Virus record (IMG/VR): IMGVR_UViG_2579778989_000006
Strand: one strand, 5' to 3'
Length of the DNA: 10,019 bases
Source: a virus
Taxonomy: Duplodnaviria; Heunggongvirae; Uroviricota; Caudoviricetes
Shown here: positions 3,481-9,935 of the stretch, piece after piece
Layout: each line of letters starts with the position of its first letter
Numbering within the stretch: the stretch's first letter is position 1
Notes under the pieces: generated by a model
The model's database searches: none
The model's input: the letters and a program-made list of their open reading frames with translations, nothing else
What the model was told of the DNA's origin: nothing
Program-made: the position numbers and the translations under genes

Positions 3481-3557
3481 GCGCTGTTAGCTCAGTTGGA
3501 CAGAGCAATTGCCTTCTAAGCAATCGGTCACTGGTTCGAATCCAGTATGGCGCACCA
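3481..3557 (+). tRNA. tRNA-Arg (anticodon UCU)
   Basis: Manual cloverleaf: acceptor GCGCTGT/ATGGCGC (two G-U pairs), D arm GCTC-AGTTGGACA-GAGC, anticodon arm ATTGC-CTTCTAA-GCAAT (anticodon TCT), variable loop CGGTC, T arm ACTGG-TTCGAAT-CCAGT, discriminator A and encoded CCA. 77 nt. Confidence 0.85.
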
Positions 3558-3558
3558 T

Positions 3559-3633
<75 letters not shown>

Positions 3634-4110
3634 TAGAGGATTATGGGACAGTATAGTGAGCATTTTTCTGCGTTACTTTTCATCGGTAAAAATAAGCATA
3701 CAACAACTATTTATGCTGGCATTAGCTATGATAGTTATTGGTTTTCTCGGAATGTGTTTATTTGTTTACTATATTCTTATCGATAACTGATATTTTTGAT
3801 ATGAATACGGAGTGGTACAAACAAAAATATGAATTCGCTATGGAATCAGGATGTGTAATAAAAATAATAGTCACTAAGTTATAGTTTTTTTTAAAATGTT
3901 AAAAACATCACATTTCATTATGTTGGGCACTGGAGAATACCCAGTCGTTTTGTTAAAAATAATTACGCATGGTGAATCCCCCTAAGCGGAGGGGCAATCA
4001 GCAACTGGTGTTTTGTCACCGACCCTTATCCTTTCTGTGCGGGTTCAGGTGCTGATACTGAACTCACCGGGAGGCACCCGGCACCATGCAAAATTGTCTA
4101 CACTACCACT

Positions 4111-4140
4111 GTAAAAAGCCCCTCTCCGGAGGGGCTTTTC
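4111..4140. terminator. Bidirectional rho-independent terminator hairpin
   Basis: GCCCCTC (4118-4124), loop TCCG, GAGGGGC (4129-4135); A-tract upstream (4113-4117) and T-tract downstream (4136-4139). Confidence 0.6.
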
Positions 4141-4239
4141 TATGGGCAAAAAAAAGCCCGCAGTGAGTGGCGGGCGGGTCGCATGAATATACATCAGGTA
4201 TTTTTATTATCGTGTTCTGATTTTTACCATCTGTGATAA

Positions 4240-4265: not shown

Positions 4266-4358
4266 GTTTTGCGGGCTGCGGTTCTCCTCTTTTGATTCTC
4301 CGTGTAGCCGGACCGTGGCCCGCAACTGTTGAGGAAAATCCCGGAAAGGGGAGGAATA

Positions 4359-6293
4359 ATGGCATTTAAACACTATGACGTGGTCAGGGCGGCGTCGCCG
4401 TCAGACCTTGCGGAGCGACTGACACAAAAACTGAAGGAAGGCTGGCAGCCGTTTGGCAGTCCTGTGGCTATCACGCCTTATACACTGATGCAGGCCATTG
4501 CCGCAGAGGGTGATGTGACCACGCCTGTGGTTGTGCCCGACACAGGGGCTGGTGGCTCTCCGGGAGTGGCTACCACTGAACCGGAGTATTACTACGTTAT
4601 TCCCCTGGCCGGGCAGTCGAACGGTATGGCCTATGGTGAGGGGCTTCCTCTGCCGGAGACCTATGATCGCCCTGACTCCCGTATTAAGCAGCTGGCCCGT
4701 CGCAGCACTGTGACGCCGGGTGGTGATACCTGTGCATACAATGACGTTATTCCGGCAGACCACTGTCTGCATGATGTTCAGGACATGAGCGCACTTAACC
4801 ATCCTCATGCAGACCTGAGTAAGGGCCAGTACGGGACTGTCGGTCAGGGGCTGCATATTGCCAAAAAACTGCTGCCTTATATCCCGCAGAATGCCGGGAT
4901 TCTTCTGGTGCCCTGTTGCCGTGGCGGGTCTGGTTTAACCGTGGGTAATGACGGCACGTTCAGCGAAACGTCTGGCGCATCGGCAAATTCAGCCCGCTGG
5001 GGAGTGGGTAAACCGCTGTATCAGGATTTTCTCTTCCGTACAAAAGCGGCGCTGTCGAAGAACCCGAAAAACAGGCTTCTGGCCGTGGTATGGATGCAGG
5101 GGGAAAATGATCTTGCGGACGGCAGTCAGCAGCACAGCGGCCTGTTTACCACTATGGTGCAGCAGTTCAGGGCTGATATGGCTGCATATTCTGCACAGTG
5201 TGTTGGCGGAAGTGCTGGCTCGGTGCCGTGGATTTGTGGTGACACCACGTATTACTGGAAGAATCTTAACGCCGATAAATATGAGGCGGTATATGGCGGT
5301 TACAAGGGCAGGGAAGCACAGAATATTTTCTTTGTTCCTTTTATGACGGACAGCAGTGGTGCAAACACACCCACCAACAATCCGTCAGAAGACCCGGATA
5401 TTCCGGCATCAGGATATTACGGTGCAGCTTCCCGGACGTCGGCAAACTGGACGTCAGCAGACCGTGCGAGCCATTTCAGCTCATGGGCACGCAGGGGGAT
5501 TATCTCTGACCGTCTGGCCTCAGCGATTCTTCTCCATGCAGGACGAACGGCTGAACTGGTGGGGGGACAGGTTGTGACGCCGCCGGATGAGAAGCCGTCA
5601 CCGGACACACCACCAACACCGTCAACGGACGGGAAATCAGTGACAACGCTGCTTTCTTACCGTGCAGCAGAGTCAGATGGTTTACTGACTCCGCAGGGAT
5701 GGGGAGCTGAAGGAGGGAGTGCAGCGGTAGTTGATGATGCAGGTGCTGCGGGAGGTAAGGCGCTGAGGCTGACCAAACAGGCAGGAAGGTCTTCGTGGTT
5801 TATGCAGCATGATGCCGGTAATGGCGCAGACCTTCTGGAGAAAGGCGGGCTTATCAGCTGTCGTTTTAAAGTTGATGGTGTGCTGTCTGCTAACCGTTAT
5901 GCACTGGCGCTGTACTGGCCGGTTTCTTCATTGCCTCAGGGTGTCACACTGGAAGGTAATGCCGGTAACAATCTGCTGGCGTCGTTTTACGTACAGAGCG
6001 ATGCCACAGACCTCAACGTGATGTACCACAAGGGTAACGCTGACCAGAACACGAAGCTGGGGTCATTCGGCGCATTTGACAACGAATGGCATACGCTGGG
6101 CTTCCGTTTTGCCGGTAATAACAGCATTCAGGTGACGCCGGTGATTGATGGTCAGGATGGTGCACCGTTCATGCTGTCGCAGTCTCCGGTAGGTTCTTTT
6201 GCGGCAGACAAATTACGTGTAACGGATATCACAAAAGCGGCGACGTATACGGTGCTGATTGAAAGTATAACAGTGGAAGTGAATAACCCGTAA
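4359..6293 (+). CDS. nanS-p: Prophage-encoded sialate O-acetylesterase (NanS-p type): DUF1737-like N-terminus, SGNH/SASA esterase domain, C-terminal beta-rich domain
   Basis: Track ORF 4329-6293; preferred start ATG 4359 (GGGGAGGA Shine-Dalgarno 5-8 nt upstream). N-terminus MAFKHYDVVRAASPSDLAERL...GWQPFGSPV is the DUF1737-type module; YYVIPLAGQSNGMAYGEG holds the GQSN catalytic-serine block of SGNH esterases; a Pro/Thr-rich linker (PPDEKPSPDTPPTPSTDGK) precedes a C-terminal ~200-aa domain. Location downstream of the phage tRNA array matches nanS-p genes of EHEC Stx prophages. Confidence 0.85.
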   Translation: MAFKHYDVVRAASPSDLAERLTQKLKEGWQPFGSPVAITPYTLMQAIAAEGDVTTPVVVPDTGAGGSPGVATTEPEYYYVIPLAGQSNGMAYGEGLPLPETYDRPDSRIKQLARRSTVTPGGDTCAYNDVIPADHCLHDVQDMSALNHPHADLSKGQYGTVGQGLHIAKKLLPYIPQNAGILLVPCCRGGSGLTVGNDGTFSETSGASANSARWGVGKPLYQDFLFRTKAALSKNPKNRLLAVVWMQGENDLADGSQQHSGLFTTMVQQFRADMAAYSAQCVGGSAGSVPWICGDTTYYWKNLNADKYEAVYGGYKGREAQNIFFVPFMTDSSGANTPTNNPSEDPDIPASGYYGAASRTSANWTSADRASHFSSWARRGIISDRLASAILLHAGRTAELVGGQVVTPPDEKPSPDTPPTPSTDGKSVTTLLSYRAAESDGLLTPQGWGAEGGSAAVVDDAGAAGGKALRLTKQAGRSSWFMQHDAGNGADLLEKGGLISCRFKVDGVLSANRYALALYWPVSSLPQGVTLEGNAGNNLLASFYVQSDATDLNVMYHKGNADQNTKLGSFGAFDNEWHTLGFRFAGNNSIQVTPVIDGQDGAPFMLSQSPVGSFAADKLRVTDITKAATYTVLIESITVEVNNP

Positions 6294-7007: not shown

Positions 7008-7223
7008 ATGTACCAGATGGAAAAAATCACAACAGGTGTGTCATACACCACGTCAGCGGTGGGAACGGGCTACTGGTTCCTGCAGTTGCTGGACAGGGTT
7101 TCCCCGTCTCAGTGGGCGGCAATAGGCGTGCTGGGGAGTCTGCTGTTTGGGCTGCTGACATATCTGACTAACCTGTATTTCAAAATCAGAGAGGACCGGC
7201 GTAAGGCCGCCCGGGGAGAGTGA
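7008..7223 (+). CDS. S: Class II holin, S21-type pinholin, with dual-start motif
   Basis: 71-aa ORF; GGAGACGGGG Shine-Dalgarno. Two in-frame starts (Met1 and Met4: [10 protein letters not shown]) as in holin/antiholin pairs. Sequence ...[51 protein letters not shown] closely matches phage 21 S21 as I recall it (two TM segments, charged C-terminus). Confidence 0.85.
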
Positions 7224-7226
7224 ATA

Positions 7227-7784
7227 ATGAACCATGAAGAAATGAATCAGCGCTTCAGTCGCCTGGAAAATGAAATTGCTGAACTGAATAAAAAACTGTC
7301 GACGCTGATGCCTTCTGAAGATGAAAAAAAACGCCGCGATGAGCAGTTTGCTGCGTTTGACGATTATTGTCGGAAAGTGATGAGCAGAAATCTCGCAGAG
7401 TGTTTCAGTATTCATAATGATAATTTCAGTGACCTGGAATGGGAGTGTAACCGGCCATCCTTTGTTGTATCCGGTGATGCCGGGAAAATAACCATCACAG
7501 AAAATGGGAAACTAACACCTCCATCGCACCAGCACAGTGAGGAGCTCATTGAATTTGCCATTGATTACCTGAAGAACAATAAAAAGCAGGGGCTGATGAA
7601 GCGCGTTGGCCGTTGCATGGGATATCTGCAGATAGCTGCTGAGATTGAAGCGCTGGCCAGTGGTGCGGACAAGGATGCAGTTGTGCGGGAGGCTCTTCTT
7701 CGTGATTTTGATAATCCGCCCTTTAAAAAAGTGCCGGCTTACTGGTTTCATCCAGGACTGACTTATCTTAAAGGACGTATATAA
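7227..7784 (+). CDS. Hypothetical 185-aa soluble protein located between holin and endolysin
   Basis: ATG 7227 lies 3 nt after the holin stop (TGA 7221-7223) with GGGGAGAG Shine-Dalgarno inside the holin 3' end, implying translational coupling. N-terminal predicted coiled coil (NQRFSRLENEIAELNKKLSTL), no hydrophobic segment, four Cys. No family recognised. Confidence 0.6.
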   Translation: MNHEEMNQRFSRLENEIAELNKKLSTLMPSEDEKKRRDEQFAAFDDYCRKVMSRNLAECFSIHNDNFSDLEWECNRPSFVVSGDAGKITITENGKLTPPSHQHSEELIEFAIDYLKNNKKQGLMKRVGRCMGYLQIAAEIEALASGADKDAVVREALLRDFDNPPFKKVPAYWFHPGLTYLKGRI

Positions 7785-7826: not shown

Positions 7827-8360
7827 ATGAACACCAAAATCAAATACGGCCTGTCGGCTGCCGTTCTGGCGCTGATTGCCGCTGGTGCGCCTGCGCCTGA
7901 CATTCTCGACCAGTTTCTGGATGAAAAGGAAGGCAATCACACCACGGCATACCGTGATGGTGCAGGTATCTGGACCATCTGCCGTGGTGCCATCATGGTG
8001 GATGGCAAACCTGTCGTTCCGGGCATGAAGTTGTCGAAGGAAAAATGCGACCAGGTTAACGCCATTGAGCGTGATAAAGCGCTGGCGTGGGTGGAGAAAA
8101 ACATCAGAGTGCCACTGACCGAACCCCAGAAAGCGGGGATCGCGTCATTCTGTCCGTACAACATTGGTCCCGGTAAGTGTTTCCCGTCGACGTTTTATAA
8201 ACGAATTAATGCAGGCGATCGCAGGGGGGCGTGTGAGGCGATTCGCTGGTGGATTAAGGACGGTGGCAGAGACTGCCGTATTCGCTCAAACAACTGTTAC
8301 GGTCAGGTATCCCGTCGCGACCAGGAGAGTGCGCTGGCGTGCTGGGGAATTGACAGATAA
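7827..8360 (+). CDS. R: SAR endolysin (T4-lysozyme-like muramidase, GH24) with signal-anchor-release N-terminus
   Basis: 177-aa ORF. N-terminal Gly/Ala-rich weakly hydrophobic segment (LSAAVLALIAAGAPAP) typical of SAR domains, followed by the lysozyme catalytic triad spacing E-x8-D-x5-T (EGNHTTAYRDGAGIWT). Pairs with the pinholin upstream. Confidence 0.85.
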   Translation: MNTKIKYGLSAAVLALIAAGAPAPDILDQFLDEKEGNHTTAYRDGAGIWTICRGAIMVDGKPVVPGMKLSKEKCDQVNAIERDKALAWVEKNIRVPLTEPQKAGIASFCPYNIGPGKCFPSTFYKRINAGDRRGACEAIRWWIKDGGRDCRIRSNNCYGQVSRRDQESALACWGIDR

Positions 8361-8450
8361 GCAGAATATTTTGCTGAAAAATGCGGTTTGCTCACACGGA
8401 CGGATAACACGAAATCCTGCGAACTGACAAAAACTAAGTGAATAAAAGTA

Positions 8451-8484
8451 AAAACCCCGTTTGTTGGCTGCAAGCGGGGTTTTG
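8451..8484 (+). terminator. Rho-independent terminator-like hairpin between endolysin and spanin genes
   Basis: CCCCGTTTG (8455-8463), 7-nt loop, CAAGCGGGG (8471-8479): 9-bp stem with one G-U pair, followed by TTTTGTGTTT; A-rich tract upstream. Confidence 0.55.
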
Positions 8485-8558
8485 TGTTTCCTGACTCTGG
8501 AAAAGTCAAAGGAGAAAGTGTGTTTGATTTTAGCAAACTGATTCGGGAGATTCGAGTG

Positions 8559-8657
8559 ATGGCTGAAAAATTATCCACCTGGAAGTTCATTCTTATCTGG
8601 CTGGTGTTTGTGATTATGGCCTCCGGTTATTTCATCGGTCAGATACGCTGGTGGTGA
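8559..8657 (+). CDS. Candidate 32-aa membrane micro-protein, translationally coupled to Rz
   Basis: ATG 8559 with GGGAG Shine-Dalgarno 9 nt upstream; product MAEKLSTWKFILIWLVFVIMASGYFIGQIRWW (single hydrophobic helix); stop TGA 8655-8657 is 1 nt before the Rz ATG (TGAaATG). Below the size cutoff of the supplied ORF track. Confidence 0.35.
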   Translation: MAEKLSTWKFILIWLVFVIMASGYFIGQIRWW

Positions 8658-8658
8658 A

Positions 8659-9126
8659 ATGAACCGCGTACTGTGCGTGGTCATCATTGCCCTGCTGGTG
8701 GCCTGTGGTGCGCTTAGTCTGGGGCTGAATCATTACCGTGATAACGCCATAACCTACAAAGAGCAGCGCGATAAAAAAGTCAGTGAGCTGGAGCTGGCAA
8801 ATGCAACCATTACTGATATGCAGCAGCGCCAGCGTGATGTTGCTGCACTTGATGCCAGATACTCGAGGGAATTAGCCGATGCGAGAGCTGAAAATGAAAC
8901 TCTTCGCGCTGACGTTGCCGCTGGTCACCGCAGCCTGCGGATCAACGCCACCTGTCCAGGTCCCGTGCGTGAAGCCACCGGCACCGCCCGCGTGGATAAT
9001 GCAACCGGCCCCCAACTGGCAGACACCGTTACACGGGATTATTTCACCCTCAGAGAGCGGCTGATGACGATGCAGAAGCAACTGGAAGGGGCACAGGACT
9101 ATATCCGCACTCAGTGCCTGAAATAA
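8659..9126 (+). CDS. Rz: Rz i-spanin (inner-membrane spanin subunit)
   Basis: 155-aa ORF with N-terminal TM anchor (VLCVVIIALLVACGALSLGL), coiled-coil middle, and an embedded +1-frame lipoprotein gene, the defining Rz/Rz1 architecture. Confidence 0.85.
   Translation: MNRVLCVVIIALLVACGALSLGLNHYRDNAITYKEQRDKKVSELELANATITDMQQRQRDVAALDARYSRELADARAENETLRADVAAGHRSLRINATCPGPVREATGTARVDNATGPQLADTVTRDYFTLRERLMTMQKQLEGAQDYIRTQCLK
8879..9064 (+). CDS. Rz1: Rz1 o-spanin (outer-membrane lipoprotein), embedded in Rz in the +1 frame
   Basis: ORF wholly inside Rz in another frame; signal peptide with lipobox-like LVTAAC followed by a Pro-rich mature region (CVKPPAPPAWIMQPAPNWQTPLHGIISPSESG) nearly matching lambda Rz1 as I recall it. 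Start may be ATG 8879 (GAGGGA Shine-Dalgarno) or ATG 8894. Confidence 0.8.
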   Translation: MRELKMKLFALTLPLVTAACGSTPPVQVPCVKPPAPPAWIMQPAPNWQTPLHGIISPSESG

Positions 9127-9154
9127 GTTTTGCTGATGCGCGGTATTGTCGCCG

Positions 9155-9219
9155 TATCCCCGCATTAACAGAGACCGCAGCCCGACAGGGAGACTCCTCT
9201 GCGCGAGTGTGCGGGGATA
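9155..9219. repeat. Perfect 10-bp inverted repeat (TATCCCCGCA / TGCGGGGATA) with 45-bp spacer downstream of Rz
   Basis: TATCCCCGCA at 9155-9164 and its exact reverse complement at 9210-9219, in a GC-rich noncoding stretch between the lysis cassette and the AT-rich distal region. Confidence 0.5.
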
Positions 9220-9476
9220 ATCAAAAACGATACACACCGGGGTTTACCGCGTTAACGGAGCGCGGCGTTGTCCCCTCATAGTCGCCTGTCCGGTGCGATG
9301 GTGGAAGAAGCCGGATGTTTATCACTATTAATTGATGACACAGAAATGGATTCATTGAATTTCAGCACGTTTTTGTATTCGTGTTATTGAACATCTGTTT
9401 ATTTTACTTTTAACATATTGATAATAAAAAGAGCTGTAAATCTTTAGATGAGTCGATTTTGTCCGGGGAAGTTCAA

Positions 9477-9749: not shown

Positions 9750-9935
9750 TTACTTAATTATGTAATTCATACCCGAACTCTCTGTTGACAGCCTTCTTCT
9801 GCAGGCTTCAATAACCCACGCTGAAAAGTTTCCTGAACCTTTCAGATCAAGAGCGATGTTAATTTGTTCAATCATCTGGTTTGGAAATCGGATGTTGCGG
9901 GTTGTTGTTCTGCGCGTTCTGTTTTTTGATGACAT
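9750..9935 (-). CDS. Small YlcI/DUF3950-like protein, probable ribbon-helix-helix-type DNA-binding protein
   Basis: 61-aa minus-strand ORF with GGGGAAA Shine-Dalgarno ~8 nt upstream of the start. Product MSSKNRTRRTTTRNIRFPNQMIEQINIALDLKGSGNFSAWVIEACRRRL... has a basic N-terminus then a beta-strand/helix pattern like Arc/CopG folds. Resembles the ylcI-type small proteins found distal to lysis genes in E. coli cryptic prophages (from memory). Confidence 0.5.
   Translation of the reverse strand: MSSKNRTRRTTTRNIRFPNQMIEQINIALDLKGSGNFSAWVIEACRRRLSTESSGMNYIIK

Follow-up and report, generated by a model that had tools for sequence, protein, structure and literature searches.

A 10,019-nucleotide stretch of phage DNA (IMG/VR record IMGVR_UViG_2579778989_000006), here called the window, comes from a lambdoid prophage of the Shiga-toxin-phage type, of which it forms the late region. 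Between its endolysin gene R and Rz, the gene of the inner-membrane spanin (i-spanin), lies a 45-codon protein-coding gene which is under purifying selection, follows a terminator-like hairpin and ends immediately before the Rz start codon. We read hairpin and gene together as a portable cassette encoding a tightly gated, late, membrane-active accessory lysis protein, and would put the probability of this reading at roughly one half. The parts of the cassette and its two flanks are the following.

7827-8360, plus strand: endolysin gene R (lysozyme; PF00959, E = 3e-24), left flank of the cassette
8361-8450, plus strand: non-coding stretch 3' of R, without a promoter-like site
8451-8483: terminator-like hairpin from the structure scan, with a 14-pair stem (6 G-C pairs) and a 5-nt loop
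8488-8514, plus strand: second stem-loop, in which TGACT (8492-8496) pairs with AGTCA (8504-8508), extended by UUCC with GGAG
8520-8657, plus strand: small open reading frame (ORF) of 45 codons, GTG start, TGA stop at 8655-8657, product MFDFSKLIREIRVMAEKLSTWKFILIWLVFVIMASGYFIGQIRWW
8545-8549 and 8559-8561, plus strand: internal GGGAG and ATG (Met14), the start adopted in an earlier note on this DNA and a possible second start giving a form of 32 amino acids (aa)
8650-8657, plus strand: GGTGGTGA (codons Trp-Trp-stop), Shine-Dalgarno-like element at the coupling junction with Rz
8659-9126, plus strand: Rz i-spanin gene (PF03245, E = 6e-48), right flank of the cassette

From the end of R at 8360 to the start of Rz at 8659 there is a gap of 298 nt, close to the 300 bp or so estimated in the earlier note, which had been written from the letters of the sequence. 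As that note also held, endolysin and spanin genes usually adjoin: R and Rz are contiguous or overlapping in the Escherichia coli K-12 prophages Qin and DLP12, so that, compared with this simple cassette, the gap is an insertion. It is matched at any length in 2,027 of 5,426 complete E. coli genomes and covered to at least 80% in 871 of the 5,426. Most annotations by the Prokaryotic Genome Annotation Pipeline (PGAP) leave it empty, and phage H-19B, the classic Shiga toxin 1 (Stx1) phage, is 98% identical over the 298-nt gap and has nothing annotated there. A 95-aa minus-strand ORF at 8303-8590, annotated in phage CP-1639, was rejected, as it crosses the hairpin and overlaps the conserved plus-strand gene.

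The small ORF had been described in the earlier note as one of 32 codons. This turns out to be the in-frame 3' part of a 45-codon ORF that begins with the GTG at 8520, 5 nt downstream of the Shine-Dalgarno sequence AAGGAG (8509-8514). The longer form is called by PGAP in some genomes (WP_000459345.1), it is matched by PHROG 6632 (phrog_6632) over residues 1-45 on profile positions 1-45 of 45 (E = 1.2e-29), and its N-terminus is conserved. The gene is already in databases as a hypothetical protein, under WP_000459345.1, PHROG 6632 and CP-1639 orf39; a literature search for the 45-aa peptide by sequence, accession or PHROG number found no paper.

The 45-codon ORF is a protein-coding gene under purifying selection. 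Between lineages, the ratio of nonsynonymous to synonymous substitution rates (dN/dS, Nei-Gojobori method) is 0.04-0.19, replacements over the 45 codons are conservative, and synonymous sites are saturated in the half that encodes the membrane helix. The 35 homologues come from Escherichia, Shigella and Salmonella only, with one further copy located by tblastn in Citrobacter braakii. Copies at 67% identity (Salmonella, Citrobacter) keep the 13 N-terminal residues M-x-D-F/I-S-K-L-I-R-E-I/L-R-x together with a GTG or TTG start and a strong Shine-Dalgarno sequence, and start codon and strong Shine-Dalgarno sequence are indeed kept in every lineage compared.

Read from its sequence, the 45-aa protein begins with a charged segment (net +2), continues with a single hydrophobic helix at about residues 22-42 and ends in RWW, so that it is predicted to be a single-pass membrane protein with one transmembrane helix. 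By the positive-inside rule the charged, amphipathic N-terminus would be cytoplasmic and the C-terminus would lie on the outer side of the membrane. The membrane micro-protein proposed in the earlier note is thus upheld as regards the predicted helix, to which purifying selection can now be added, and had to be corrected in its length of 32 codons.

A second, 32-aa product from Met14 is possible. The internal GGGAG sits 9 nt upstream of the ATG at 8559, Met14 is invariant, and GGGAG is kept in 22 distinct sequences, in which Arg9 is only CGG or AGG and Glu10 only GAG; in the phage SEN34 homologue, Met is residue 9 and of the GGGAG only GGAG is left. Two other families of small ORFs found in the same place (families B and D, described below; the 45-codon gene belongs to family A) have an internal ATG too, with GAGG before it. 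Dual-start holin/antiholin genes such as lambda S107/S105 and phage 21 S71/S68 are similar in that two in-frame starts, each with a Shine-Dalgarno sequence, give a long and a short form, which are putative in the case of the small ORF. Their starts are 1-3 codons apart, whereas those of the small ORF are separated by 13 codons; the topology is also reversed, the charged end being N-terminal, and an S21-type holin is present in addition. The 45-aa protein has no holin match in Pfam or PHROG, its charged segment is N-terminal and its C-terminus is RWW, and the cassette is not a recognisable holin.

Hairpin, occluded Shine-Dalgarno sequence and coupling to Rz

The earlier note placed a hairpin-plus-T-run terminator at 8451-8484, and the structure at 8451-8483 bears this out. 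It is a G+C-rich stem-loop directly before a U-rich tract, the arrangement that defines intrinsic terminators, with a T-run on its 3' side (GTGTTTCCTG in the structure scan; TTTTGTGTTT, to about 8489) and an A-run on its 5' side. The hairpin can be called intrinsic-terminator-like and could act in both directions. Folded alone it reaches -21.6 kcal/mol, against -10.5 +/- 2.5 for shuffled sequences (z = -4.37), and because 0 of 200 shuffles were as stable, it is no chance structure. Thirteen diverged cassettes show compensatory change in the upper stem, where three pairs are altered on both sides with pairing kept (variants TTTG/CAAG, ATTG/CAGT, ACTG/CAGT and others); the lower stem was fixed by the search pattern, which makes its invariance uninformative.

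In the folds, a second stem joins the tail of the terminator's T-tract to the Shine-Dalgarno sequence of the small ORF, and an equivalent stem is formed elsewhere from other sequences (CCTTG/CAAGG, GGCAG/CTGCC). The distance from hairpin to GTG start is 36 nt, and the linker between hairpin and ORF measures about 30 nt across cassettes. As G-U pairs make the two strands of a stem unequal in stability, both strands of 44 distinct cassettes were folded: the terminator hairpin is stabler on the plus strand in 36 of the 44 (mean -19.1 vs -15.9 kcal/mol) and the second stem in 32 of the 44. Since both stems are stabler on the plus strand, the plus-strand structures appear to be the selected ones. 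A role of the hairpins on the minus strand only, which had also been considered, is disfavoured by the same test.

The promoter scan called no promoter-like site on the plus strand between R and Rz. A search of Rfam with permissive E-values, covering the window and six related loci, returned nothing at the cassette except a sub-threshold minus-strand match resembling the rimP leader (29.9 bits). The terminator on the late transcript, the occluded ribosome-binding site and the GTG start point to a deliberately low, late expression of the small gene. In the earlier note it had been argued that a terminator in this position would separate expression of the spanin from that of the endolysin unless polymerase modified by the antiterminator Q reads through; such read-through is plausible, since the hairpin is terminator-like and a Q gene (1116-1805) lies upstream.

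At the other end, the TGA of the small ORF occupies 8655-8657 and the Rz ATG begins at 8659, which confirms the 1-nt spacing between stop and start that had been noticed before. The final codons TGG TGG TGA form GGTGGTGA, one position off the extended Shine-Dalgarno sequence GGAGGTGA. The last five codons (IRWW-stop) are common to families A and D, and family D also ends 1 nt before Rz; because the two families are otherwise unrelated yet share this end, the comparison suggests that the 3' end of the small ORF belongs functionally to the Rz initiation region. In the K-12 prophages the stop codon of R overlaps the start codon of Rz, so that these two genes are directly coupled, and by its geometry the small ORF would have taken over the coupling role of R for Rz while being more than a leader.

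A stricter version of this idea, which the earlier note had offered as one of its options, is that the ORF is simply a leader: it would deliver ribosomes to Rz after an insertion had parted Rz from R, and its peptide would have no function. The 1-nt gap, the GGTGGTGA element and the overlapping stop and start codons through which Rz is coupled to R in K-12 are what such a leader would call for. A functionless peptide, on the other hand, is at odds with the dN/dS range given above (about 0.1) and with conservative replacements across all 45 codons. The peptide is also kept before the unrelated DUF2514 spanin, and in baseplate operons of the SEN34 type, which lack Rz at this place and in which the next gene has its own Shine-Dalgarno sequence. 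For these reasons the leader is very improbable as a full explanation.

In the cassette that we favour, an intrinsic-terminator hairpin would be followed by a stem that pairs the tail of the U-tract with the next Shine-Dalgarno sequence and by the gene of a 45-codon membrane protein. As it has no plus-strand promoter of its own, the small gene would be expressed only from the late operon, when Q-modified RNA polymerase crosses the hairpin, and its translation would be throttled by the GTG start and the occluded Shine-Dalgarno sequence. Ribosomes finishing the small ORF would stop 1 nt before the Rz ATG, inside GGTGGTGA, which would couple the translation of the spanin to that of the membrane protein. 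The protein itself would act late in the inner membrane as an accessory lysis factor, either in the timing of lysis or at the holin, endolysin or spanin step; small amounts of it probably suffice, and early expression is probably harmful.

Exchangeable contents of the slot

All 80 of the 80 IMG/VR loci retrieved with the 45-aa protein are arranged as in the window (S21-type holin, lysozyme, Rz). Alternative contents of the slot were found by scanning IMG/VR for the hairpin motif. The recurrent order is holin, endolysin (of four types), hairpin, Shine-Dalgarno-occluding stem, small ORF, TGAnATG and i-spanin, the last being either of the Rz family or of the unrelated DUF2514 type, and wherever Rz or DUF2514 follows, a single nucleotide separates the stop codon from the ATG. 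The position inside a holin-endolysin-spanin cluster holds in five cassette types, with the SEN34-like baseplate context as the exception. Cassettes which differ from that of the window in their neighbours are these.

Citrobacter: phrog_126 holin, 138-aa endolysin of the phrog_873 type, Rz
E. fergusonii: holin_8, GH19 endolysin, DUF2514 i-spanin (unrelated to the Rz family)
P22-like Salmonella phage: holin_2_3, lysozyme, Rz
Loci L106 and L114: endolysin of the phrog_315 type; family B first after the hairpin, then further small ORFs

After the hairpin, the slot may hold family A, to which the 45-codon gene belongs, or a diverged A with C behind it; other cassettes have family D (50 aa), or family B (60 aa) with either family C (43 aa) or a short D as the next ORF. 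The alternative small membrane-protein ORFs of the slot match PHROGs 1115, 4493, 3246 and 4906. L106 (677-1263) has family B and then family C. L114 (2501-3199) has family B, a 49-aa ORF, a D-like small ORF and, after a 1-nt gap, a predicted lipoprotein of 60 aa (phrog_7528). A recognisable i-spanin was not found in the L106 and L114 cassettes, where the outer-membrane step may be organised differently. In the family D cassettes (L008, about 2660-2683; L139, L159, L186) the Shine-Dalgarno sequence of the linker starts an 8-codon mini-ORF, MGREVLSL, whose stop codon overlaps the GTG start of family D (GTGA), resulting in a chain of coupled ORFs that leads into Rz.

The earlier note mentioned an antirepressor-type gene between R and Rz in related Stx phages and suggested that the small ORF may be the trace of a different insertion at the same junction. 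Both points agree with the comparison of the R-Rz junction across prophages which that note proposed: the micro-ORF is conserved in relatives, the contents of the slot vary, and the junction is a hot spot at which different genes can be found, among them the antirepressor gene ant in Stx2 phages of the Min27/933W type (phage Min27, Sakai prophage Sp10). The stretch 8361-8450 recurs at 84-96% identity in many prophages, Stx and other, that continue differently after it (with ant or other small ORFs); partial BLAST matches to the gap cover query positions 1-86, 1-95, 1-129 and 1-156, and the Min27 sequence agrees. The ant insertion of 933W and Min27 thus resembles the window in the R-Rz junction itself and in the first 90 nt or so after R. 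It differs in its cargo, which is a soluble protein of 189 aa, and a family C ORF still stands directly before Rz: in Min27 this ORF lies unannotated between ant and Rz (L221, about 2850-2985), and in Sakai Sp10 it is ECs_1966 (L223, 1625-1771). The unit thus behaves like a cassette that can be exchanged, the hairpin with its linker being the left end that stays constant.

Several observations weigh against a role in lysis or sit awkwardly with the gating proposed above. Between baseplate genes, away from the lysis genes, the hairpin and a family A ORF also occur in Salmonella phage SEN34 as well as in prophages related to it; the gene after the family A ORF in SEN34 is not Rz and has its own Shine-Dalgarno sequence, and in SEN34-like phages another small membrane ORF, family E, can replace A between the same flanks. 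Since a family A ORF sits in this baseplate cluster, adjacency to spanins is not obligatory, and the function of the protein may be unrelated to lysis. A terminator within a baseplate operon is also hard to reconcile with efficient termination on the plus strand. None of the small proteins had a match in Pfam, NCBIfam, PADLOC or PDB sequences, and a constraint on synonymous sites in codons 1-22, to which we return below, is not accounted for by the gated cassette alone.

The exchangeability of the cassette is reminiscent of the morons of lambdoid phages (HK97 gp15, lambda bor and lom), extra genes between essential late genes which have their own upstream promoter and a downstream terminator and are expressed in the prophage. 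The small gene is likewise inserted between late genes, variable among similar phages, associated with a terminator and endowed with a product predicted to be a small membrane protein; among collinear phages it is absent from K-12 Qin and DLP12 and elsewhere replaced by other small ORFs or by ant. The small ORFs might then be morons of use to the lysogen, whether through superinfection exclusion, for instance, or through another change of the inner membrane, with no role in lysis and with the R-Rz junction and the baseplate slot as merely permissive points of insertion. The exchange of cassettes between constant flanks (A against E in SEN34-like phages; A, B+C, B+D and D in lysis cassettes) and their occurrence outside lysis cassettes would agree with this, and among known morons HK97 gp15, a small membrane protein, functions in exclusion. 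In the window, however, the terminator lies upstream of the gene, no plus-strand promoter-like site was found from R to the ORF, and coupling ties the ORF to the late gene that follows. With no promoter and with the terminator on the wrong side the cassette is not a classical moron, and its expression in an uninduced lysogen is unlikely. The occluded Shine-Dalgarno sequence, the GTG start, the lack of a PADLOC match and the recurrence of tight i-spanin coupling with two unrelated spanin families also speak against a lysogen-benefiting moron, which we regard as quite unlikely.

A possible antisense RNA

The synonymous constraint already mentioned is confined to the 5' half of the gene. In family A, synonymous changes range from 1/13 to 7/12.7 sites in codons 1-22, compared with 10-16 of about 16 in codons 23-45 (example pairs: 1/13 vs 12/15; 5/12.7 vs 15/15.7), and degenerate codons such as Ser5 AGC, Lys6 AAA, Glu10 GAG, Arg12 CGA and Leu18 TTA are invariant. 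Family B, which is unrelated in sequence, shows a like pattern (0-2/11 vs 18-21/34), while family C, never the first ORF after the hairpin, has no such constraint at its 5' end. The possible internal start may account for part of the constraint. Conserved mRNA structure within the ORF was rejected as the cause, RNAalifold having given only the terminator and two tiny hairpins without covariation.

Another explanation, compatible with the gated cassette, is that a cis-antisense RNA gates the gene in the manner of type I toxin-antitoxin systems; we consider this a serious minority possibility. A minus-strand promoter within the first 13 or so codons would produce an RNA of about 80 nt which starts at the start codon and ends at the hairpin, acting here as a bidirectional terminator. 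The RNA would block translation of the membrane protein and, through the coupling, of Rz until late transcripts exceed it. Its hypothetical elements in the window are as follows.

8527-8555, minus strand: hypothetical antisense promoter with the extended -10 element TGCTAAAAT, the reverse complement of 8527-8535
8550-8555, minus strand: weak -35 element TCGAAT of the same promoter (reverse complement of these positions; 3/6 match)
8441-8520, minus strand: hypothetical antisense RNA, about 80 nt, predicted; its 5' end is complementary to the start codon and Shine-Dalgarno sequence, followed by stem-loop, terminator and U-tail

Such an RNA would explain why codons 1-22 of family A have so many fewer synonymous changes than codons 23-45, why family B behaves alike and family C does not, and why Ser5 AGC, Arg12 CGA and Leu18 TTA are fixed. 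Families A, E, B and D share a minus-strand -10-like hexamer at ORF nucleotides 8-13, while 7.4% of control ORFs have a 5/6 hexamer match anywhere in their first 24 nt. At this offset families A and E carry TAAAAT, which in A is preceded by the TG that completes TGCTAAAAT; at one family B and one family D locus, the scan of 700 nt gave a single promoter-like site, which falls in the same place on the minus strand (TAGTCA-18-TATACT, 9/12, and TGGACA-18-TATACT, 10/12, respectively). The minus-strand fold of 8440-8522 consists of two hairpins (z = -4.2), with a like shape in six cassettes including the window, and the A-rich tract 5' of the hairpin, which would become the U-tail of the minus-strand RNA, is kept in unrelated contexts. 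The geometry is also that of the P22 sar RNA and of SymR/symE, a type I pair with an antisense RNA over the 5' end: a tightly repressed gene or a small hydrophobic protein is involved, and the predicted promoter just within the 5' end of the ORF would fire backward across the Shine-Dalgarno sequence towards a terminator about 75-80 nt away. With 45 aa and one hydrophobic stretch, the product is the kind of small hydrophobic membrane peptide that type I systems encode.

Other evidence tells against this RNA. The -35 element of the window matches at only 3/6 positions, the consensus scan called no minus-strand promoter at the 5' end of the ORF in the window, L012 or L207, and the minus-strand promoter matches were found only after the antisense idea had been formed. 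Both stems are stabler on the plus strand in most cassettes, the RNA is a prediction with no match to an Rfam family, and the small ORF has no dedicated promoter, unlike classical type I toxins. In the prophages checked in O157 Sakai, the table of Hfq-bound RNAs from crosslinking and analysis of cDNAs (Hfq-CRAC) shows no peak between the endolysin gene and Rz, but binding to Hfq is not required of a cis-antisense RNA. The cassette could be filed as a type I toxin-antitoxin pair only with evidence for the RNA itself.

Several known small RNAs (sRNAs) were tried as the identity of the antisense RNA and rejected. AgvB, AsxR and EcOnc03 differ in hairpin sequence, the Pas sRNAs are located upstream of the holin gene, and EcOnc32 (about 112 nt) and EcOnc33 (about 71 nt) map elsewhere. 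EcOnc10, EcOnc11 and EcOnc12 have strong Hfq peaks with promising spacing and strand; the mapped EcOnc11 lies downstream of Rz and thus off the junction. A further minus-strand promoter-like site at 8642-8613 (CTGACC-18-CATAAT, 9/12), in the 3' half of the ORF with its saturated synonymous sites, is missing from relatives and probably arose as a match by chance.

If all these elements acted together, the cassette would be a self-gated unit of an undescribed kind, in which a bidirectional terminator, a Shine-Dalgarno-occluding stem and a constitutive cis-antisense RNA of about 80 nt keep at least five families of interchangeable, membrane-active micro-proteins (A, B/D, C, E, F) silent until late transcription and, through the translational coupling, gate the spanins as well. 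Shiga-toxin phages, H-19B among them, would then possess new effectors or regulators of lysis in these proteins. This combined proposal is rather doubtful.

Neighbouring genes, the P2 precedent and significance

Besides the cassette and its flanks, the window contains the following features.

1116-1805: antiterminator Q gene (PF06323), upstream of the lysis genes
3481-3554 and 3559-3630, plus strand: two tRNA genes downstream of Q
3937-4147, plus strand: sRNA of the STnc100 family, full-length (140.8 bits)
4329-6293: sialate esterase gene
Between sialate esterase and holin: DUF1378 and DUF826 genes
7008-7223: S21-type class II holin gene
7227-7784, plus strand: YdfR-like ORF between holin and endolysin
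8879-9064: Rz1 outer-membrane spanin (o-spanin) gene, embedded in Rz
9750-9935, minus strand: DUF3950 gene (ylcI/ynfO-like)

STnc100 is reported to be related to the prophage sRNA PasD (Zhu, Shabalina and Storz, 2026 preprint). Just 3' of Q, the minus strand at 1867-1940 resembles the enterobacterial sRNA STnc370 below threshold (41.3 bits, gathering score 54), near the expected site of the late promoter and its terminator. The YdfR-like ORF encodes 185 aa, compared with about 103-116 aa for YdfR-family proteins of related prophages; one PHROG covers its residues 1-122 and another its residues 124-185, it has no Pfam match, and it looks like a fusion or an extended variant. The hydrophobic N-terminal segment of R suggests an endolysin of the signal-anchor-release (SAR) type. 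Just 3' of Rz, positions 9127-9315 are 94% identical to the Sakai prophage Sp10 region that contains EcOnc11, whose peak would fall at about 9200-9248 on the minus strand. EcOnc11 is among the strongest unannotated Hfq-binding peaks of O157, with EcOnc10 and EcOnc12 as homologous peaks (Tree et al. 2014, Table S2). The EcOnc11-like stretch of the window probably marks an Hfq-bound RNA or 3' untranslated region, running leftward from the DUF3950 gene.

Among known systems, we regard lysA of phage P2 as the nearest functional precedent. It is a membrane-protein gene flanked by K, which encodes the endolysin, and by lysB, which encodes the i-spanin; it is dispensable for lysis and affects its timing. 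The small ORF is likewise a gene for a predicted membrane protein between endolysin and i-spanin genes. LysA differs in being about 140 aa long with several membrane helices, and it has no sequence similarity to the 45-aa protein; we know of no description of an upstream terminator hairpin or of an exchangeable cassette structure for lysA.

The lysis cassettes of lambdoid and Shiga-toxin phages are usually seen as holin, endolysin and spanin genes, to which the junction studied here adds a conserved gene that most annotations omit. New are the corrected gene model, the evidence for selection, the architecture and distribution of the cassette, and a testable antisense hypothesis; should the predicted RNA be real, late lysis genes would provide a new case of gating at the RNA level. 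The layout of the cassette also illustrates how phages swap very small genes at fixed slots. As the timing of lysis governs both phage yield and the release of Shiga toxin, a membrane protein translated just before the spanin would be a testable candidate regulator.

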